DNA of 64,000 nt from Cetorhinus maximus (Eukaryota), in contig NC_135893.1 in the NCBI RefSeq assembly GCF_964194155.1, positions 21,018,001 to 21,082,000 of the forward strand. Direction: 5' to 3'. Position numbers and translations under genes: made by a program. Of the stretch, positions 313-53,031 are shown piece by piece. Positions within the stretch are counted from its first letter, which is position 1; each line of letters begins with the position of its first letter. The notes under the pieces are model-generated. The model made no database searches and was not told the origin of the DNA. It worked only from the letters and a program-made list of their open reading frames with translations.

Positions 313-3300
313 CTAGGAAAAAGCATATTTAGTCAGTAAGTAGTGTATGTTCAGAAGCAGCATTAAGAATTAGACCTGACTCGGGCAAGGCCTTGCAGAA
401 GAGATAAGGACCTGGTTAATCAGGGTCAGTGGGTCCCTGGAATTGCTTTAGTTACCTAAGGGGATTAAAGAGAAATATTCCAGATTTTAAATGTCCTAAT
501 TGGGACAGGTTGATGGGCCAGATTTTTCCTGCCTTTTTTTTAAGTGCTTTGCATGTTCTAGCTCAGTTTTTAATATTTCTTCTGTGGATCACTCTGAAGC
601 ATTCAGCAAAGAGTAGATGGGCGTGTGGCCTCCTTGTGCACTGCACTATTCTATGATTTTTCAAGGTGTTAAAGGTACAATATAAATGCAAGTTATTGTT
701 AAACAGTTCATCATATAAAATGTAATATGTTAATTAACAACTGCACTTTAGTTCCACTGGGGGGCAGGGGGGGGGAGTTGCTTTGCTGAGCTAAAGCTTT
801 CATCTGATGGAAACAGATCAAATAACTTTGCAACTTGTGTCGTATTCAAATTTGACCAGGTCACACTTGTAAAAGTGAACTCGGTGTAATTTTCCTTCTG
901 CTGCAGTTAACCTTTTGGTAAGTTTTTAATCCTCTACCACAGAAAATGAAACCACCTCCAAGTAATGCAACACCCAATCAGTGTTATTGTGGGCACAAAC
1001 TATGAAGTTACCTTGCCTGACTGATAACAGTTGCATACTGGAAAATTCCATAATGTCTCATTTAAGTAATGAAATTTTCCATGGGTCACACAGGTTTATA
1101 TAACAGTACAGATTCTTAAATATTTAATTTGCACATGTCAATGAGCAGGTTAAAGACTCACATCCAACTAAGTGAACCAAGCACTAAGAAAAATGATCAA
1201 ATGACAATCTAAGAACAGTCAGCCCTAGTAAAAGACAAGATTGAGTAACGTAATTAAAAAAAATATAAATAAAATTACTCCAGCTTTAGTTCCCTTTACA
1301 AATTTCTGTCACGGATTTTAAAAGATTACATGGGTGTAAATCATCAATGATTTATTTGGAAAATTGAATAATTAGTCAAACTGAAGTGAGTTTACAAGCT
1401 GTATTTTGAAAGGTAACAATCAGTGATAATCATAATCACAAAATCTCCAAGGAACACAATCCCGACAGTATAATTTCAGAGGACTATTTGTAAATATAAA
1501 TAACCGGTTAAATTCTCAATCAAAACAGTATTCAATCAGCACCCAATCCCATGGAGGTGACTGGGAGTGATGAATCAGTTCTGCTCTGTTGCCCACTTTA
1601 ATCCAACTGTCACAGTCTAATCAGCAGATGGAACAATCACTCACTTCAATTTAATACAGAATTATCATCAATCTACTAATCTTCCTAGAGGTGGTTGCTT
1701 CTTATTTTTGAGCTACTGGAGGACACCATGTATGTCCAGTCAACTATAATCTCCTATACCTTCAATATAAAGAATGGTTTATGATTCCGCTACACTGAGC
1801 ACTCATATGGGAAATACCTTAAAAAGAAGTTCTCTCAATATGAAGTACATCATCAGACTAGCGTAATGTAGAAGTGGTGTAGTATGCCTCTTATCTGCAG
1901 TTTGGTGCCACTTTTAAGCTCACACACTTCCTATTAGACATCCATGCTGTTAAAATCTGAACTTGTAATCACCTAATCATACTGCTTACTTATATCGGTT
2001 TATCTCTGACTCAGCTGAACCATGGTGATGCCCTGTATGATGGATCTCCATCTTTCAGATTTGGCAATAAATGAAAAACTAGTAAGGAAGCCAATCAGTG
2101 ACAGTGCTGCTGACTGTAAGAGACGTCCTGTTAACAATTAACCAATGACAATTCTCCAATGGAACAAAGGCATATTTATATTACACAGCTTCTATCAAGC
2201 ATAACTCTTTGCAAATTTATTTACTTAACTAGAGGGGAGGACTCAACATTGAAAAGGCTCCCTGTGCACATGCATGGTTTCTATGCACCAGTTTGAAATA
2301 TGTAAATAGTACTTGTATTTGGATATTCCTCAGAGATAAAAACAAAAAACTACTGCGGACGCTGGAAATCCAAAACAAAAACAGAATTACCTGGAAAAAC
2401 TCAGCAGGTCTGGCAGCATCGGTGAAGAAGAAAAGAGTCGACGTTTCAGGTCCACATGATCCTTCAACAGAACTGAAGTATAGTTAGGAGAGGGGTGAAA
2501 TATAAGCTGGTTTAAGGTGGGGGGGGGCGGGGGGAGAGAAGTTGAGGGTGGGGTGGTTGTAGGGACAAGCAAGCAGTGATAGGAGCAGATAATCAAAAGA
2601 TGTCACAGACAAAAGGATCAAAGAGGTGTTGAAGGTGGTGATATTATCTAAGAAAAGTGCTAATTAAGAATGGATGGCAGGACACTCAAGGTACAGCTCT
2701 AGTGGGGGTGGGGTGGAAAGACTGACAAGGTATTAGTTGTAGATTTAAAAATAATGGAAATAGGTGGGAAAAGAAAAATCTATATAAATTATTGGAAAAA
2801 AAAACAGAAGGGAGGGGGAGGAAATGGGGTGGGGATGGGGGGGAGGGGGAGTTTAAGATCTAAAGTTGTTGAATTCAATATTCAGCCCGGAAGGCTGTAA
2901 AGTGCCTAGTCGGAAGATGAGGTGCTGTTCCTCCAGTTTGCGTTGGGCTTCACTGGAACAATGCAGCAAGCCAAGGACAGACATGTGGGCAAGAGAGCAG
3001 GGTGGAGCGTTAAAATGGCAAGCGACAGGGAGGTTTGGGTCTTTCTTGCGGACAGACCGCAGGTGTTCTGCAAAGCGGTCGCCCAGTTTGCGTTTGGTCT
3101 CTCCAATGTAGAGGAGACCGCATTGGGAGCAACGAATGCAGTAGACTAAGTTAGGGGAAATGCAAGTGAAATGCTGACCTGGAAAAATTTATTAATTTTG
3201 CTTCCAATCTCCACCCCTCCATCATTTTCACATGGTCCGTCTCTGACACTTCTCTTCCCTTCCTTGACCTCTCTGTCTCAATTTCTGATGATAGACTGTC

Positions 3301-6300
3301 CACCAATATCCATTACAAGCCTACCGACTCCCACAGCTACCTCGACTACAGCTCCTCACACCCCGCTTCCTGTAAGGACTCCATCCCATTCTCTCAGTTC
3401 CTTCGCCTCCGTCGCATCTGTTCTGATGACGCTACCTTCAAAAACAGTTCCTCTGACATGTTCTCCTTCTTCCTTAACCGAGGTTTTCCACCCACGGTCA
3501 TTGACAGGGCCCTCAACCGTGTCCGTCCCATCTCCCGCGCATCCACCCTCACGCCTTCTCCTCCCTCCCAGAAACATGATAGGGTCCCCCTTGTCCTCAC
3601 TTATCACCCCACCAGCCTCCGCATTCAAAGGATCATCCTCCGCCATTTCTGCCAACTCCAGCATGATGCCACCACCAAACACATCTTCCCTTCACCCCCC
3701 CTGGCGGCATTCCGTAGGGATCGTTCCCTCCGGGACACCCTGGTCCACTCCTCCATCACCCCCTACTCCTCAACCCCCACCTATGGCACCTCCCCATGCC
3801 CACGCAGAAGATGCAACACCTGCCCCTTCACTTTCTCTCTCCTCACCGTCCAAGGGCCCAAACACTCCTTTCAAATGAAGCAGCATTTCACTTGCATTTC
3901 CCCTAACTTAGTCTACTGCATTTGTTGCTCCCAATGCGGTCTCCTCTACATTGGAGAGACCAAACGCAAACTGGGCGCCGCTTTGCAGAACACCTGCGGT
4001 CTGTCCGCAAGAAAGACCCAAACCTCCCTGTCGCTTGCCATTTTAACACTCCACCCTGCTCTCTTGCCCACATGTCTGACCTTGGCTTGCTGCATTGTTC
4101 CAGTGAAGCCCAACGCAAACTGGAGGAACAGCACCTCATCTTCCGACTAGGAACTTTACAGCCTTCCGGGCTGAATATTGAATTCAACAACTTTAGATCT
4201 TAAACTCCCCCTCCCCCCATCCCCACCCCATTTCCTCCCCCTCCCCTTTGTTTTTTTTTCAATAATTTATTTCGATTTTTCTTTTCCCACCTATTTCCAT
4301 TATTTTTAAATCTACAACTAATACCTCGTCAGTCTTTCCACCCCACCCCCACTAGAGCTGTACCTTGAGTGTCCTGCCATCCATTCTTAATTAGCACTTT
4401 TCTTAGATAATATCACCACCTTCAACACCTCTTTGATCTTTTTGTCTGTGACATCTTTTGATTATCTGCTCTTATCACTGCTTGCTTGTCCCTACAACCA
4501 CCCCACCCTCAACTTCTCTCCCTCCGCCCCCCCACCTTAAACCAGCTTATATTTCACCCCTCTCCTAACTATACTTCAGTTCTGTTGAAGGGTCATGTGG
4601 ACCCGAAACGTCGACTCTTTTCTTCTCCACCGATGCTGCCAGACCTGCTGAGTTTTTCCAGGTAATTCTGTTTTTGTTTTGGATATTCCTCCTCTGCCTC
4701 TCCTGACTTCTGCTGGGGTGCAGTTTGCGTTCCCCTTTAAGCAGGTATTCAAACTTTTAAAATATTGAAGCAAATTCAGCATCCACAACAAGAGTTTGCT
4801 AGAAGCTTCAAATCTTATAAATAGACTGACCAACAAAATACTCACTTAATGGCTGAATGTAAACACAACACTCCAGAGTCAGGGCACCACAAAAATAAAC
4901 CATCTCCACGGCAAATTACTGAAATTTGTTTTCAGAAATGCGAATGTCAGAATTGCAGGAACTGGGCCTCATTTCCATGGTACAATAAATTATCCAAATT
5001 AACTTGTCTCCCATGACATTGCACACGGATAGCCCGAGGTCTGATGTTTCGCTACTAACCGGACCTGTCCCTTCAAGGCTGCTCAGTTACTTCTGAGGAG
5101 ACCTGGGGCTGCATGTTTCTCTACCAAACCTTTCAAAATTGGTGGAGATGGAGGAAAAATTAGACCCTTAACGGTGGATCGCCAATCTATTCGGTAGAAG
5201 CTGGTCTACATTGGCCAAGAGGTCAATTGTGAGATAAATGTGAAGATTGCTGGGTACTTGCAAATTCTGTTTACAGGTAAATCTGCAAACCATCTCACGA
5301 ACAGAAATTAACTTACACTGGATCTCAGAATGAAATGACTGCCTTTAGAAAAAGGGTTTTTCACACCCTTTTGCAGTGAGAGAAAGATCGTTATTCATAG
5401 ATGTATGGGCTATGCCAAAGGTTCAGGATCTCTGTTTCGCCAGTTGAGGAGATTCTCCTCAACATTTGGCTGACCATCATAGCAACCATCTTGTAAATAT
5501 AGCAAGCAGATCAGGGAACTTCTACTGGCGGGTCTGCTGAGGCACTTGGCTATCTCAACCATTCACAGATAGATAGGGTAATATGTTAATCTAACTGCTA
5601 AGCTATGTTTCAAACTGTGGGTGATCCTGGAAGTAGACACACACACGCCCACACAGACAAACACCATGCCGCACAGACACATGCACCCCAGCATGGGCAC
5701 ACATGCTTCCCCGCCCGCGCCCCCCCACCCGCCTGCACATGCGCACACGCGTACCCCCTGCTGCGCAGACAATGTTTCACAGGTCACTGGCAGCATTCTC
5801 CACTGATGGGCATCTTGAGGGATTGGCTACATCCTTCAATCTAATTTCACAATTGCAGTTTGTCACATTTCTTCACTTAAGGGCACTAGTTTGGATATTA
5901 GCAGAGTCGCCCTCCTTTTCAGAGGAGGGGCACTTTTAGATGTGTGGGGTATCTTTGGACATTACCCAATCTCACCAATTACTGACCTATATAAAACAGG
6001 ACATGGGAGTGTGAAAGACATTCACCGAGCCTCTAGCTGGATGTCTGATAACATGTGGAACATTCTAAACAGAAGCTGCAATTTTGCAGGATTCCCCACT
6101 GTGCATGAAAGTCACCGACTCTCCAAAATTGCTTCACTCACCTGGTAGGTCCATGAAACTAACACATCTTTAGTACTCTGATCATCAGACATTGCACTGA
6201 TTTTAATGAGAATGGACTCCACCATCACAGAGCCATCAGGGAGATGTTGAATGGGATAGTCCTTCAAGATGCTTCAAGAAGACATTGAAGAAAGGAAAGA

Positions 6301-9300: not shown

Positions 9301-12300
9301 CTGAAATTGTGAAAGGTGCTAGATAAATGCATGTCCTTCCTTCTTTAATTTAATTATTTTTCGCCCCACTGCTGAAGCAAAGAGTCTTGCTGGCAGATAG
9401 TTCCACAGGTGCTGGTCATGCTATGATACTTCGCTCAATTGCCTCTCATAGATGAGTGCAGATAATAAGCGTGGGCAAGCTATTCAACAACAGCGAGCAT
9501 CACTGCTGAACTCCAGCTTTTCTTTGGCCAATATCTAAGCACCTGTGTTTTCCAGTTGATAATATAAGTTAGGTGAGCATAAACCGATTGCCCACGTGAC
9601 TCTTACCTTGGAGTTATCTGTGTGTCCCTTCCCTACCAACAGATCTGTGAACAAACCTGGGGCAATCTTGACTGGTGTGCCTCAGTTCCAGGCTGGGCAA
9701 TGCATTAAACATTGGAGCCATAATTCAATCATACTTTTACTTATAAAGGGAATCTCAGGTCTTTTTAAAAAAAAAAGTAGGCTATTTCCTAAATCTTAAG
9801 GTTAAGACCTATTCTGTTACCGAGAGTTGAATCTCCCTTGAGCAAGCTGAGAGATATATCCACGGGAATATTGGGATTAGTGGTGATTGCGGCTGTCTCT
9901 CCATTGGCTGGCATGTAGCAGTTAATACCTGAACAAAAAAACAAAAATGTGAATAAGTATTAAAAGTCTTCTCTCCACCACGTTAAACCAAAAATGTATT
10001 GAAAATGCCAGCAACAAAACATAATTTACAAAAAATTAGTGAAATTGCACCTTGGCAGTGGATTGGCACATTGGGAATACAAACTGCCAGAACAGGTAAT
10101 CATCATACTTGGGGAGGTTTCATCTGCAATTGGAATGAGCAGCCACATTCCTGACTGGGATGGGAAGAAACGCCACATCTGAGGGCTGTGTTTGGGGACA
10201 GTGACATCAGATGACATCAATGAGCTACTTGATACCAATGGGAATCAGGCTTTTCATCAAGCGGAAGTCTGTCAGATACAAAGGGTTTTTGCTTCATTCC
10301 AACTGGGTAGTGGAATGATTCAAAATTATATCCATAGGAAAGAAAAGGAAAGAAAACGTGAGTTTTTTTGGGGGTCCATTTTGTGCTGATTGAGGTGAGG
10401 GATATCAGCATTCAAGAACAATGAATGTTTCTCCTTTGGGCACAATTTTTTTTATATTACACACCTCGAAGCTGGGTATAACAAGACCAAATGCAGTTTA
10501 AAAGTCACTCTATCCCGCCCGAGAACAGCACTCCCATCGTACCAGTGTGATTTTCTTCGGGTGGGATTTTCCACATCCGCCCGCTGTTGGGATCTTCCGA
10601 TCCCGCCGCAAGTTAATGGGCTTCTGGCTGGGGCGCCGCCTCACCCATGGCAGGGCCCACCCACGACGGGGGCCGGAAAATCCCTTCACTTCACACATCA
10701 GCCTCTTGATGGCCTCTCAGTGAGTTACCCAGTTAGTGCCAATTTATCCCAGAATGTGGGCTGTCCTGGGCTTTGTACACACAAGCACCAAGGTTAATTC
10801 TATCCAAATTAATTTTACATGGCATCGTTAGAGCTGGCAGAGAGGGCACCTCTGTCCAAGCTGTCTGGGAGGATTCAAATCCAGGTCCCAGAGATACAAA
10901 AGGCAATGTACTAAATCACTACACTGGGTCAGTCAAAGCACAATAAATATCACAAATTCCAGCTAGAGTTCAGTTGGATAAGGTTCTGCATAACAGATTG
11001 TTGGTTAAACTTTGCGTTTGGATAGGAAAGTGATTAGGAAGTGCAAGGAAAACAGTTGGGATTAAAGAAATATTCTTGGCTTGACAAATAATGACAAGTG
11101 ATGTTCCGCAGGATTGCTGCTAGGAGCCCAGCTTTACACTTTATATTAAATGATTGAGATTCGTACATAGAAAAGTATTTCCAACTTTCCAAACGATGCT
11201 AAGCTAGGAAGTGTGGTGAGGTTTAAGAGGAGGACAGTTCAATTAAGTAAATGACAGTAATAGACTATCCTGTGAGGTAGTACATTTTGGACACAAGAAT
11301 GACAGATGAAAATCCAGTCTAAACGAGGAAACAGAACAGTGCAGATAAATAAAGGAATTTAGTAGTCCGAGTATATAAATCATTAAGAGGAATCAAATAA
11401 AACAAAGGGGCTCTGGGCTTCATCGCGAGACATATAGAATATAAAAGCAAATGCTTGGAGTAAGTACAGCAATAATTCACCAGAATGATACTTGGGGTGA
11501 TGGGATTTAGCCATGTCAAAAAATTGGATAAACATGGGTTAAAGAGAGGTTAAGGGGTTATCTGACTTAAGTATTTGTAATGAAGAAGGGAATAGCAGGG
11601 TTAAGAGAGAAAAAAAACTGCCCTCCTGTATTAGAATCTAGATCGAAAAGGACATTATCTTAAAATCCAAAGAAAGCCAATCAATAGTAAATTCAGAAAC
11701 AATTTCTTCATGCAAAAGGCTGTGAAAATGTGGTATATACAGCTCCATCAGCAGAATTAATAAAGATGTTTCCTAAAGTATCAATTAAGGAATGTGAGAA
11801 AAGGGAATTGGGATTAAAAAGATGAAATCCTCATTGTTAGCAAACTGGTAGAGAATGCCAATTTGCTGAATATCTTGTCCTATTCTTATTTTATGTAATA
11901 CTTGATATTTTCTTCACATGAAAAGATTAGATATTTGCCTTGCAGAGGGTAATAATACCGTATGCGAGCTTCAGTGATACTTACTGAACTCCTGCTCAAT
12001 TTTCTCTTTAAGGAATCCCATCTTCTTAGCCTCTCCATGGACCAGCAGCACATTTTGTGGTTCCACTTGACGGATAAGTTGCATGATGCCTTTGGCGTCA
12101 GCGTGTGCACTGAATGACATGTATTCCACCTGCATCTTCACTTCTAGCTGGGGAGGATAACATGAACAACAGAAGTAATGAGCAGTATTATAAATACTAT
12201 TTTCAATCGAATAGAATTAAAATGATCTTTAATTAAAGAAACTCAAAATCTCAATTCCAAATTTAGATTTAATACAAAAAAATCCTGAAGACAAACCATG

Positions 12301-29300: not shown

Positions 29301-32300
29301 CAGTGTATCTGGCACTATGATTCCACTGTGCATTATACAAATAGTTCAGTGCAATGGGAGGCATTGTCACACCTCTATGATCATTCATATCCAAGGCAGT
29401 ATAGCCCATAAAAATCAATATTCAATCAGAATAATTAGCCTTCAAACAACTGATTGGCATTACACCCTTGTAATAATAGATGAATGGTGCTGTGGCTGAG
29501 GTTCATTCATACTCACTGTATACACCACTGATTCGGAGCCCACCCGGATATAGACCATGGCTGCACCTAGCACATGCCCAGCGTAATATGCTTTAATTTC
29601 GAGTTCATCATCAACCTAGAAGATCATTCCAAAATACAAATCAGTATTTTCTAATTTAGACAATTCTAGTAATCCTGTTTGCAGCATGGGACCAGAGTAC
29701 GGTGGCAGGCAGTATAGAATGGAAGGTCAGTGAATCAGTCTGTACTGGAATCAAGAGGCATCAGAATGGAAAATCCTTTCATTGTAAGTAACATTAAAAC
29801 AAAAATCTTATCTAAGATACCATAAGCCTGGAGATCATTGTCAGATTGGTGCATTATCTACATTTCCTTCGTATCTGTTCTCCTAGTGCAAGTTAATATT
29901 TCTTACTTTTTAAACAAAAGACTGCAACCAACACATTGCTTACCTGAACAAAAACAAAAATACCTGGAAAAACTCAGCAGGTCTGGCAGCATCTGCGGAG
30001 AGGAGCACAGTTAACGTTTCGAGTCCGTATGACTCTTCAACAACATTGCTTACCTGTACGGTTTGATGCAGATGAACAGCTACAACTTTCTTCATGCAGT
30101 CTTTGATCATCTGAGAAGTAAAGAAGTTTGTCTCGCCTTTCTTATCAACTGTAATCTTCCGATAATCTTCTAAAAGGATTGGACAAATGGCTTTTGTAGG
30201 GTGGGTCATGTATATGGGACCATCGTAGCCAATCATCTCACTCATATAAGGAAGGGCACCACAGTGATCCAGGTGGAAATGACTGAGAAGATTAAAGATT
30301 GTATAGATAAACACAACAAGGGTACGTTTTCAGAGAAGTTGGAAAATTTAGGGTTAACTTAGTAAAACGTTTGCTTTTGAGAAAGCAAGGCTAGGAAATT
30401 AACAGCTCACCTATCACCTACATTACTGAAGAATCCCTTTTGGATTCATCCAGTATCTCCATTCTATTTACTCTAATTGGAGGTTTTTTTTTAAAAACAG
30501 GTCATAAGAAGAAAGCAGATTCTGTACAGAACTGAAGAAAATCCATCGCAGCGTGCTAGAATAATCCTTGCATTCTGAAAATAATAGCAAAACCAATTTT
30601 AAATCTTTTGGGACTAAAATCATTGTTTGTGACAGCAAAATGCTGCAGATGCTGGAAATCTGAAATAAAAACAGAAACTGTTGAAAATACTCATCAGGCC
30701 CAGCAGCAAATAAAATTCAAAACAAACACTACAGCCAGGAGCAAGGTCTCCTTTATACCTCTAGCTCAGCTCCAATGGTGTCACAAGTTACAATCTATGA
30801 GAGTAATATTTACCTGATGATGACACAGTCAAGAAATTCTGTTAGTCTTCCATTTTGAGTTATATAAGAGAAATCAGGAAAGCGTCTCTGAAATAACAAG
30901 CAGCAATAAATCACAAATTACTGGACAGTGCTGTAGGGACAGGGAAAGTTCCGCTTCAACTCCCTGTCTGTGCTGCTACAGCAGCTGGGGAATAATTGGC
31001 AAGCTTACAGCCAGAAAGAAGGCCATTTGGCCTATCAGGTCTGTGCTGCCACTTTACTAATTTCATCGTTATCTATCTTCATCTACTTCAAAGGTTTATC
31101 GAAGCCCATGTGAAAAGATGCAATGGAGTCTTCCAGCTTGTGGTGGAAAAGCATTCTATGTTCCAACAACCTCCTAGATAAAGACACTTCCTTTGACCTC
31201 TCTGCTCACCCTCTTAGGAGAAACATCAGAGGGCTCCTGCATCTAATTGTTATCTAGAAACATGTGTTGAGAATGCAAGTGGGTGAATGCCAAGTGAAGG
31301 CAGGAATCAGGCCCAGTTGTTCTACTCCTCATGATTGAGTACCTTCTCTAAAATCATGAGGGGTAGCATTCTGACTTAAGTGCTCTCAGCAAGAGACTCT
31401 TGTCCAGTGGATCTGCATTATTGGAAATCTAGGCATGGTCCGTGCATCATTTTCCAGCCATTTTCTTAAAAGTATCACATGCACCTGAACTTCAGTCAAG
31501 TGCTCAGAATGGGACAGACTCGCCATTGGAAGCACAAACTCATGAAATCACCCCTCCATCTGGGATGGTAGGAACGCCAGAGGGCATCCAGTGACTGGAA
31601 CCTCGCAAGAAGAGGCGATTGAAAAAATAAAAAGGAGAAATTACTCCAAGGGTTGTGTGCATTTGTAAATACATTAGAAAAAGTTCTCAAACTACTGTCC
31701 CCATCTGTGACAAGGGAAAAAATAATAATGTTTGCTGTAGCGTACTGAAATACAGCAATTTCTGACTCTGCTTGTGATGCAGCTGTAACTGAGGGTTCAT
31801 TCACAACATGGCAAATATAGTCTGTAAGTAATGAACTCAATTTAAGTCCTAATCCTGAAATCTGCACTTTTCAGTTGCAGTTACGGCACTAACCACTGCT
31901 ATACTTAACTATGATTTCACTGCCATCTTCAATTCCACTGATAGCTTTATGAAAATGTCAGGGACATAACTTGCATTTGTTGCACTGACTGTACATGTTA
32001 AAGAGACAAAATTCAGCAAGGCCACAACATGTGGAGTTGAGGTTAAAAAAAAACTTACTCTACCTTTGAAATAGAAGCTATTCATAAAATTATTTAGCTC
32101 AGTAGCTTCCCTGACATATTTAAACCATGAATAGTTGGCCCATATAGGCTAGGATGGCCCCAGGTTTGAACCGCAGTCCAAGCTAAGATAGCTGATAGCT
32201 AAGTACCCAGATCTGTCTGATTTAATTCCGTGTACAAGCCAGTCTGAAGGGGCCGAGACATCACCCTACCCCTTACATACAAAGACAGTTACAGGGGAGA

Positions 32301-38000: not shown

Positions 38001-38978
38001 TTCCAGGATTTTGATCCAGTGACAGTGAAGGAACGGCGATATATTTCATTCACTGGTAACATCATTGCTGACTCCAGTCCCATTCTCTTTGGTACTTCTG
38101 GCAGGGGCTCACTGGCTAGCAATCAGGAGAGGGACCCCTATTTTCCACTCTCTCTAGCCATTTGGGGTGAAGTACAATTGTGGTGCTTCTACAATCCCAG
38201 TTCAGTGAAAAATCAGGGGTCAAAATTGCAACCTTTTAGCTGCAACATACAGGTTGAACTACTGGAGTTCAAGTTGTAGCTGTTTTTCTGGATGTGGTGA
38301 CCTGCTTGACAATGGACTGATTTTGTGGTTGCTCTAGGATTATTGCTCCTCAAGTTTTAATTTTAATTTTTGTTAGATCAGTGATTTAATTCAATTTTTA
38401 AAAGCCAGGATGTTGGTGGTAATGCTAAGATATATTTCTGTTTGTTACCCTTTAGGTTCATGAATAGCCTCGGGAAGGCCTTTTCCTTTATTTCAAGTGA
38501 TGCCTTCGCCAAAATCCAAATTCTGGAAAACTACAGATGTGGCGCAAATGGCCACAATTATCTAACAATTCAGTCAATGGTGAAGTATGAGGTAGACCAC
38601 AACCTTGTGGACCTGAAGAAGCGGGGCGACTACTCGAGTTCTGGCTGTCGTACGTTACTGCGGCTCCATCGTGCCCTCAAGTGGCTGCAGCTCTTTCTGG
38701 AGAAGTTGCGGGTAGCTTCTGACGATAGCAAAACGTCCGTCCTTTGTACAGAGGCCTATAATGACTCCCTGGCCAACTACCATCCCTGGATAATATGCAA
38801 AGCTGCAGCTGTTGCCTTTTATATGCTGCCAAGCCGAGCGAGCTTCTTTGAGATTATGAATATGGGCCCGACTGAAAAGGTTGTGGCTATACTGGGAGAA
38901 GCACTGCCACTCATTTCAAAGACTTATAACATCACACAAGACCTATATAGTCAACACGGCTTGCTTGACCTTCCTTAA
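34942..38978 (+). CDS. CPTP: Ceramide-1-phosphate transfer protein (GLTPD1): join(34942..35060,38456..38978); 642 nt, 213 aa
   Basis: Exon 1 MVEPVKFSLAEALECFRNCLTDDGEIVQEHYLNGWKGLV-AA|gtgagt splices in phase 2 to tttag|G-FMNSLG...GCRTLLRLHRALKWLQLFLE...YHPW...LLDLP*. GLTP-fold motifs match human CPTP, which is also head-to-head with INTS11. Confidence 0.97.
35720..36670 (-). mobile_element. CR1-type LINE 3' fragment in the CPTP intron, apparently nested in an older MITE-like element (about 35446-37022)
   Basis: ORFs 35989..36240 and 35696..35989 (RVQKRFTRMI, RRLGGDLI, TQRVARVWNKLP); host ends ggcctggattttgtgg and ccacagtaacatctgaacc. Confidence 0.8.
38456..38978 (+). CDS. CPTP: CPTP coding exon 2 (terminal)
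   Basis: Acceptor tttag at 38451-38455; lies within ORF 38442..38978. Confidence 0.97.
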
Positions 38979-47247: not shown

Positions 47248-47385
47248 CAATTCTGTTGAACGGTCATTAACCCGAAACGTTGGCTTTAGTTCTCCCTCCA
47301 AAAAAGCTGCCAGACCTGCTGATTATTTCCAGCATTTTCTGATTTTGTTTCAGAGTTCCAGCATCCGCAGTATTTTGCGTTTGAG
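47248..47385 (+). mobile_element. Penelope terminal fragment with a decayed hammerhead-like motif
   Basis: ttctgttgaacggtcattaacccgaaacgttggct...gctgccagacctgctga...ttccagcatccgcagta. Confidence 0.75.
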
Positions 47386-50600: not shown

Positions 50601-53031
50601 TCTCAGTTGTTACCCCCCAGCTTCCTCTGTTCCAAGGAGGTTGCAAGCACCAGGGAATGACCATCTACAACAAGTAAGAGCCTAACTGTACCCTTGGCAT
50701 TCGATAGCACTCCCATTGTTGACTCCCCCCACCATCAACATCGTGGGGCAGGGGAGTCATCATTGACCAGTAACTCAACTGGACCAGCCACCTAAATGCT
50801 GTGAACGCTAAAGCACATCAGAGGCTGGGTATCCTGTGACAAGTGGCTCACCTTCTGATTCCCCAAAGGCTGGTGTCCTGAAATTTTGCAGCAACAAGAA
50901 AACTTAGCAGCATTGCAGGTGTCCAGGCAGGAGAACACTTGAGCAACTTGTCCACTTGCTTTGACCGTGGTGAAGCAGCACACCATGATGGTGTCTTCTA
51001 TCAACTTTCTCTGCAACTGGGTTGGGTCCTGATTCCAGAGGTGTTCTCAGCTTTCCAATCTGTGCAAAGCAGAAAGTGTTTCGAAGCAATATGGGAATGG
51101 TAACATAAACACATTCTGAATCAATGCTTTTGTGGAATGTTAGATATTCTTCATTACCTCCGCCACTGAAGTTGGGCAGAGGTAATGTTTTCATCCCATT
51201 TGTTAGTCTGTTTATCTGTAAACAATATATCTCAAAAACTAATGGACGGATTTCAACACAGGATATGACCCAAGGAAGAACTGATTAGTTTTTGGAGAAG
51301 ATCTAGATCCTGTAATTTTTTAAAGGATCTATTAACACCTGGGATAGGGCAAATTGACTTCTTTCTAGAATGTTGTGGGTTGTTCTATTTAGAATACTAG
51401 GAGTATTGTGTCCAGTTCTGGGCACCGCACTTTAGGAAGAATGTTTCCAGGTGTTCAGTTGCACAGAAAGATTGGACAAGTTGGGACTGTTCTCCTCGGA
51501 GAAGAGAAGGTTGAGCGGAGATTTGATAGAGGTATCATGAGGGGGCTGGACAGAGTAGAGAGAGAGAGAAACTGTTCCCATTGGTGGAAGGTTAGATTTA
51601 AAGTAATTGGCACAAGAAGCAATGGCAACATGAGTAAAAAGCTTTTCACGCAGCGAATGGTTAGGATCTAAAATGCACTGCCTGAGAATGTGGTGGAGGC
51701 AGGTCCAATCAAGGCTTTCAAAAGGGAATTAGATCATTATCGGAAAAAGGAAAATTTGCAGGGCTACTGGGAAAAGGCTGGGGGCGTGGCACCATGTGAA
51801 TTGCTGCTTCAGAGGGCCAACACGGACATGATGGGCCAAATGGCTGCCTCTTGTGCTGTATCCATTCTATTCTATGATTAACTGACAGAAGCAAACAAGA
51901 AACAGGCAGACCTCCTTAAAGGAGAAGGACTGAGAAACACCGGTCAGTAGTGTACAGATCTCTCCCCAGTAATATGAGGTGTTGAATGTGAATGCATTTG
52001 ACTTTTTAATTGTAGGGAGTTGTGATGTGTAACTAATATTAACCTGTTGTATTGCAGGGGTGACAGGAGGCCTCACGGAAACCGAGCAGCAAGCAAAATC
52101 TGGCGCTCATTCTGGGGAGGCTGCTGAAGATGGGACTGCACTGCCCACGCCCCAGCCCCAGCCCCGCAAGAACTCCCGGCAATATGGCCAAAAGCATTTC
52201 ATCTGTAGCGAGTGCGGGAAGAGCTTCAAGCAGTACTGTGACCTGAAGCGGCACGGCCGGGTCCACACGGGTGAGAGGCCCTTCCGGTGCCCGCCCTGTG
52301 GCAAACGCTTCAGCACCTCCTACAACCTGCTGATCCACCAGCTGGTGCACAGTGGTGAGAAGCAGTACAAGTGCCGGGTGTGCGGCAGGGAGTTTGTCCA
52401 GCTGCACCACCTGGTCACTCACCAGCGCACGCACACGGGCGAGAAGCCCTACCCGTGCCCAGTGTGCGGCAAGGCCTTCCGCCAGTCCTCCACCATGATG
52501 GTGCACCAGCGCATCCACGCCGAGGAGCGGCCGTACCGCTGCCCCGAGTGTGCCAAGAGCTTCAAAACCTCGTCGAACCTTTCCAAGCACAAGCGTATTC
52601 ACAGCGGCGAGCGGCGCTTTGCCTGTGAGGTGTGTGGCCGCCGCTTTCTCCACTCCCACCACCTGGCCACCCACCGCCGCACACACATCGGCGAGCAGCC
52701 GGCCTTCTGCCCGATCTGTGGCCAGCGCTTCGGCAACCCAGCCCAGCTGCTGGCACACCGCCGTGCCCACGCCGGCGAGCCTCCCTTCAGCTGCGAGACC
52801 TGCGGCCGGGGCTTCAAGCAGAGCTCAACTTTGGTGCGGCACCGCCGAACACACACCGGGGAGAGGCCATACACCTGCCCCATCTGCGCCAAGGCCTTCC
52901 GGCAGACCTCCACTATGCAGGTACACTACCGCACACACTCTGACGATCGACCCTACCGCTGCCTGGAATGCGGCAAGGGCTTCAAGAGCGCATCCAATCT
53001 AATCGGTCACCACCGTGTCCATAGGAGGTAG
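47694..53031 (+). CDS. C2H2 zinc-finger protein with 10 tandem fingers; minimal model join(47694..47700,52058..53031), 326 aa; extra internal exons possible
   Basis: ATG GCA G|gt (phase 1) joins attgcag|GG GTG ACA in frame with the 52060..53031 ORF. No KRAB, SCAN or BTB domain seen. Confidence 0.7.
51153..51365 (+). mobile_element. Helentron-associated (HINE/DINE-1-like) non-autonomous element, tentative
   Basis: 5' hairpin attacctccgcca...tgggcagaggtaat, then a degenerate gttt/gtct microsatellite and ctcaaaaact...gacggatttcaac core. Confidence 0.5.
51400..51878 (+). mobile_element. CR1-type LINE 3' end; similar tails at 45060-45370 (-), 48340-48560 (+) and 50245-50635 (-)
   Basis: gagtattgtgtccagttctgggcaccgcactttaggaag...ttttcacgcagcgaatggttaggatct...gatgggccaaatggc...attctattctatgatt. 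Confidence 0.85.
52058..53031 (+). CDS. Zinc-finger array exon (10 x CX2CX3FX5[LM]X2HX3H)
   Basis: Uninterrupted ORF with ten canonical fingers and TGE(K/R)P-type linkers, ending TAG at 53029-53031; acceptor AG at 52056-52057. Confidence 0.95.

Follow-up and report, generated by a model that had tools for sequence, protein, structure and literature searches.

A Penelope-like retroelement end that duplicated the exon-4 splice donor of shark INTS11 is probably a tolerated passenger

What becomes of a gene when a retroelement inserts at one of its splice donors and leaves an identical donor a short way downstream? INTS11, the nuclease that matures snRNA 3' ends, raises this question in the 64,000-nt stretch of Cetorhinus maximus DNA analysed here, which we call the window. 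The gene lies on the minus strand, with 17 exons encoding 601 aa, and 592/601 residues are identical to a named shark INTS11; its top PDB matches are Integrator subunit 11 (E 3e-48), with CPSF73 at E 4e-14. The assembly contains one such exon 4 and one 53%-identical match elsewhere. Intron 4 is 438 nt long, and read-through tails of database proteins place an intron at the same position in other vertebrates. A skate protein (P0014), annotated as an isoform, joins exon 4 directly to exon 6, skipping the 99-nt exon 5 in frame. Elsewhere in the window, a GLTP-family exon lies on the opposite strand upstream of INTS11 (38385-38978), presumably from CPTP, the neighbour of INTS11 in human, and a C2H2 zinc-finger ORF lies at 52033-53031.

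On the minus strand, exon 4 is followed by a 14-bp block, 96 bp of further sequence and the identical 14-bp block again. The block, CAGGTAAGCAATGT, occupies 30056-30043 and 29946-29933; the two copies agree at 14/14 positions, and the match extends to 16/17. Because the block is the exon-4 donor region, identical donors stand at 30053 and 29943, 110 nt apart. A third GT begins at 29963 and belongs to a weaker donor. An earlier note on this DNA had described a 96-bp Penelope end between perfect copies of the donor, with a further donor inside the insert, and both descriptions hold. A retroelement origin, with a target-site duplication that copied a splice donor, is supported. The features are as follows.

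30054..30282, minus strand: INTS11 exon 4, 229 nt, phase 0, containing the HxHxDH motif (HFHLDH)
30043..30056, minus strand: first copy of the target-site duplication, which is the native exon-4 donor, GT at 30053 (repeat comparison)
29947..30042, minus strand: 96-bp 5'-truncated 3' end of a Penelope-like element, sense to INTS11, lacking the optional tail
30009..30042, minus strand: hammerhead remnant, with a core lacking C3, a stem II hairpin, a palindromic helix III and only the 3' strand of stem I; predicted inactive
29973..29977, minus strand: weak branch-point candidate from a motif scan only, A at 29974, 31 nt before the cryptic acceptor, with an extra AG between
29958..29966, minus strand: weaker donor carried by the element, GT at 29963, also AG/GT; would add 90 nt, or 30 codons in frame without a stop
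29944..29961, minus strand: putative cryptic acceptor, a U-rich pyrimidine tract and CAG, nearly identical to the INTS11 exon-13 acceptor
29933..29946, minus strand: second copy of the target-site duplication, which is the duplicated donor (GT at 29943), placed right after the cryptic acceptor
29944..30053, minus strand: predicted mini-intron, a 110-nt GT...AG unit whose removal would exactly restore the presumed pre-insertion donor
29517..29615, minus strand: INTS11 exon 5, 99 nt, site of the premature stop if the duplicated donor is used

The insert is an ordinary member of a very large family. Exact-pattern matching across the genome found 4,824 copies of a 33-mer and 22,303 copies of the 3' 25-mer. 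Compared with 30 family copies (L001-L030, the first matches on one contig, selected for the exact 33-mer), the insert carries the majority base at 94/96 sites, and its bases at the other two are also common in the family. Direct repeats flank 12/30 loci at lengths of 10-16 bp, with 14 the commonest, three pairs being the two arms of one insertion; about 14 bp is the usual target-site duplication of this family. Longer copies extend upstream in the same sense into an ORF with features of a reverse transcriptase (RT) C-terminal region and a GIY-YIG-like endonuclease, and L002 and others match an ORF at 3170-4147 of the window by tblastn. Atlas clusters for that ORF are HTH_animal and GIY-YIG (0.94-0.95); the ORF is frameshifted and gave no Pfam match. 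With this upstream coding capacity the family combines 5' truncation, inverted partner copies and an optional 30-40 nt tail, present in 11/30 copies, and it thus has the signature of EN+ Penelope-like elements.

Other relics of the same kind lie in the window. INTS11 intron 16 contains a larger Penelope-like insertion (2364-4689), whose inverted arms are 97.4% identical over 814 bp and which holds the frameshifted RT C-terminal/GIY-YIG-like ORF. Older Penelope end fragments, about 73-77% like the insert, occur at 30634-30708, in intron 3 and in sense orientation, and at 47248-47376. All 22,303 copies of the 3' 25-mer carry a pyrimidine run, CAG and GT, which amount to a weak donor and a minimal recursive motif when the copy is in sense. 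Family 3' ends are possibly a source of cryptic splicing in shark introns.

The earlier note had the insert start inside a hammerhead, without C3 and the 5' strand of stem I, and this stands; the start point itself is not special, as 6/30 copies begin within 8 nt of it. The full 40 nt upstream is present in 20/30 copies and none of it here. Short copies tend to begin at the 5' edge of the hammerhead (L007, L015, L019, L021, L023 and L025); five of these six are fold-backs, and a spacing of about 160-176 bp recurs in many fold-back pairs. In long copies the layout fits, by eye, the hammerheads described in PMC4209133 (here and below, a PMC citation covers the available part of that source), but the canonical core occurs in only 2/30: core position 6 is U in 25/30 copies and the canonical A in those 2, in a sample picked on the adjacent 33-mer. 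No match in the window reached the Rfam gathering score, and in four loci an Rfam search with E up to 5 found no hammerhead. A single minimal hammerhead of such kind did not cleave in vitro (PMC4209133). Activity requires a complete core and stem I, and the insert lacks C3 and the 5' strand of that stem; from its sequence, the remnant is predicted to be inert.

The earlier note had also allowed that the duplication might be an assembly error. Contigs of run X1, possibly the assembly's own sample, cross both junctions with 0 differences. In a second species, contigs of two runs from two studies enter the insert from both sides and cross both junctions. The insertion is thus found in 3/3 contig sets examined, from two species, with junction contigs that stop short of the middle of the insert and in which the second species' letters at the copied donor are not readable. 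Run X21, a targeted capture of another sample of the same species, was left out of the genotyping for its low depth on unique sequence. Five probable RNA runs, with word shares of 0.26-0.30, form no part of the evidence. That no examined contig spans the whole insert is what an assembly error has in its favour; both junctions are crossed in contigs of three runs and two species, and the duplication has a length typical for the family. We therefore consider such an error to have a negligible probability.

The comparison across related species that the earlier note called for also bears on age. The second species differs at 32/719 letters over the exon-5 contig and at no fewer than 24 sites in 461 intron letters, or about 5% in these introns. 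As it carries both junctions, the insertion predates the split of the two species, and the description of the locus as newborn is contradicted. The closeness of the insert to the family majority suggests that it is not much older than that split. Without selection, a perfect repeat has a probability of about 0.6 at the observed divergence, so the intact repeats are compatible with neutrality. An ancestral empty site was not found among read-through proteins of other sharks; we infer the empty allele from the presence of the target-site duplication. The insertion has been tolerated, since two species carry it and the assembly has a single copy of the gene.

Genome-wide, six family ends are directly followed by AGGTRAG, with 6-15 expected, in the one 3'-end register searched. 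Observed and expected numbers are close, so there is no sign that the element targets donors, and we rejected targeting. The duplication in INTS11 is real, and one adjoining a donor motif is to be expected for a family this large. Among the other five donor-adjacent loci, a clear duplicated motif occurs at L033 only, where the duplication copies a donor-like AGGTAAG at a distance of 338 nt, with no coding exon evident beside it. Nor is this a family whose copies serve as introns in many genes, as introners do: in that register, the six donor-adjacent ends are at chance level, with one at a recognised exon.

The products of the three donors were read with the usual distance rule for nonsense-mediated decay (NMD) and with exon definition in mind. 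By translation, the native donor yields the protein of 601 aa. The middle donor would add 30 residues in frame, giving 631 aa with no NMD expected. The copied donor would add 110 nt and shift the frame, as the earlier note had it; translation would then end in exon 5 after 195 aa, at a stop 1,259 nt short of the last junction. In U1 pairing the copy equals the native donor at -11.0 kcal/mol, second best of 16 donors, and the middle donor (-7.2) is within the range of real INTS11 donors. Decoy donors that pair with U1 at least as well as the true donor, scored by pairing energy only, occur within 250 nt in 6/15 other introns, or 7/16 with intron 4 included. The 30 nt before the copied donor contain 19/30 U, compared with 2-11 U at the ends of INTS11's 16 donor exons.

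Taken together, our results favour a tolerated passenger, with exon 4 still spliced mainly at the native donor, at a probability of roughly 0.6. The 5'-truncated end of an abundant Penelope-like retroelement inserted at the exon-4/intron-4 boundary, and its 14-bp target-site duplication doubled the donor there. As a donor this second copy is probably little used: the sequence ahead of it, very U-rich over 30 nt, would be read as an acceptor tract and not as the end of an exon, and it is from this context that we infer its suppression. Transcripts using the second copy as an acceptor would lose exactly the 110 added nt and regain the old donor, and rare direct use of the copy would be cleared by NMD. 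Overall, little change in INTS11 protein is predicted. In support of the passenger reading are the ordinary membership of a very large family, the lack of donor targeting, the persistence in two species, the compatibility of the perfect repeats with neutrality, the frequency of decoys and the absence of the extension among the 276 fetched proteins. Against it, identical strong donors at least 45 nt apart are used at close to 100% on the downstream side in HeLa cells and extracts (PMC3413131), and by this analogy heavy use of the copy would be predicted. Equal U1 pairing of copy and native donor points the same way, and new intronic donors near true donors cause aberrant splicing in human disease genes (PMC1934990).

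The same downstream-site rule, together with the equal pairing and a stop far upstream of the last junction, would fit an unregulated leak, in which the copy is used in more than about 10% of transcripts and these are destroyed, leaving a slightly lower INTS11 dose and no control function. If most transcripts spliced downstream, the survival of the insertion in a single-copy gene of two species would be difficult to explain; the context of the copy is acceptor-like, and no product of it was found among the fetched proteins. We find a leak improbable. Extended or truncated INTS11 proteins were absent from our database searches, the extension occurring in 0/276 fetched proteins; such searches carry little weight because NMD-degraded transcripts, and sharks with the insert, may be missing from the database.

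The earlier note had gone further and proposed a switch, in which U1 abundance would decide whether the native or the copied donor is used and so feed back on the snRNA 3'-end nuclease. The sign of such feedback is plausible: less active U1 weakens the downstream bias in human systems (PMC3413131), so that more active U1 would favour the downstream site in the direction of negative feedback, and the stop is of the NMD type. A functioning switch is not supported by the protein searches or by the decoys in other introns. The sharing of the insertion by two close species is compatible with neutrality, and a poison element of deep conservation cannot consist of young transposon sequence. A literature search with narrow terms turned up neither an account of this locus nor one of a poison isoform of INTS11. 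We regard a regulated switch as very improbable. The twin-donor account on which it was built is right in its positions and frameshift and overlooks two points: the middle donor keeps the reading frame, and the second copy sits in a context resembling an acceptor.

As to the stem-loop next to the native donor, which the earlier note thought might bias donor choice, its fold z-score is -1.3. Opening energies depend on the folding window: for the native donor they come to 4.0-8.3 kcal/mol with the insert and 4.2-5.2 without it, and for the copy to 3.2-5.5. Their order changes with window size; a stem-loop effect is not robust and not supported, and this also counts against the switch. In some windows the native donor is less accessible than the copy, and this speaks against the passenger reading.

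The middle donor raises a different possibility, that exon 4 extends to 29963 and places 30 additional residues between Q143 and V144 of the nuclease domain. The frame is open over these 90 nt, and the donor's pairing is no worse than that of some donors the gene uses. It is weaker than both neighbouring donors, however, and no longer protein with the insertion was found among 278 candidates, the single match being an unrelated bird entry. Such an isoform is most unlikely.

The most interesting live alternative is that a sizeable share of transcripts splice out the 110-nt unit first, regenerate the old donor and then splice to exon 5; in this reading, self-removal would be why the insertion was tolerated. 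The geometry is an exact GT...AG, and splicing from 30053 to 29944 would restore the presumed old donor. The putative acceptor is nearly identical to the real exon-13 acceptor, and the site, a pyrimidine tract and YAG with a donor immediately after, fits the minimal recursive motif of PMC10156609. The 30,958 nt of intron scanned contain seven recursive-type motifs, and GTRAG follows none but this one. INTS11 itself has introns of 85, 95 and 109 nt, and there are introners whose two splice sites both derive from the place of insertion (PMC9860276). On the other side, intron 4 is short, whereas recursive sites are enriched in long introns, which is typical though not absolute (shorter cases exist), and conventional splicing is favoured where introns are short (PMC10156609, PMC8758631). 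The candidate branch point is weak, with an extra AG in between. On balance we consider self-removal unlikely. The real exon-13 acceptor (9926-9950 of the window) is itself an AG followed by GTA.

A bolder form of this idea would have one Penelope insertion give a vertebrate housekeeping gene, in a single step, a 110-nt recursive mini-intron that excises itself perfectly. Both splice sites would come from the duplication, and pyrimidine tract and branch point from the element. One and the same AG/GT would then toggle between rescue, as an acceptor, and NMD, as a donor, possibly with U1 dose. Drawn from the arrangement of the motifs, this proposal is speculative and rather doubtful.

As a passenger, the insertion matters little. 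The locus nevertheless repeats in nature a classic experiment with duplicated donors. By the laboratory rule the downstream copy should win, yet two species still carry the allele in a nuclease gene of single copy. If the 110-nt unit is cut out in RNA, the locus would offer a dated case of a vertebrate recursive splice site, or introner-like intron, made by a retroelement, and would show how splice-junction insertions can be neutral from birth.

The element is best compared with EN+ Penelope-like elements carrying minimal hammerheads in pseudo-LTRs (PMC8557442, PMC4209133), for which inverted partners and an optional tail have been described (PMC8557442). The family shares their 5' truncation, inverted partners and one-sided tail of 30-40 nt, the extra base between position 9 and stem II, the palindromic helix III and, in its long copies, the RT C-terminal part and GIY-YIG-like ORF in the same sense. 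Unlike them, the INTS11 copy is only 96 bp long and has lost C3 and half of stem I, and most family copies have U for A at core position 6.

The duplication resembles introners that co-opt both splice sites (PMC9860276) in supplying GT and AG such that exact removal is possible. The INTS11 insert differs in being a retroelement at an existing exon-intron boundary and not within an exon, at one locus and with no intron family, and its removal is a prediction; the available part of the introner survey reports no pattern of introner gain in vertebrates (PMC9860276). With recursive splice sites, or ratchet points (PMC10156609, PMC8758631), it shares a pyrimidine tract and YAG followed by GTAAG; here, however, the intron is of 438 nt, the first segment of only 110 nt, and the site is transposon-made and known from its letters. 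The poison (AS-NMD) elements by which RNA-processing genes regulate themselves are a further parallel, as alternative splicing here too would put an NMD-type stop into such a gene, but the copied donor is young and transposon-derived, and its use and regulation are putative. The duplicated 5' splice-site constructs of PMC3413131 likewise place two identical strong donors more than 45 nt apart; in INTS11 the pair belongs to a natural internal exon, is separated by a U-rich, acceptor-like spacer and has persisted, in an important gene, where the rule would lead one to expect mis-splicing.
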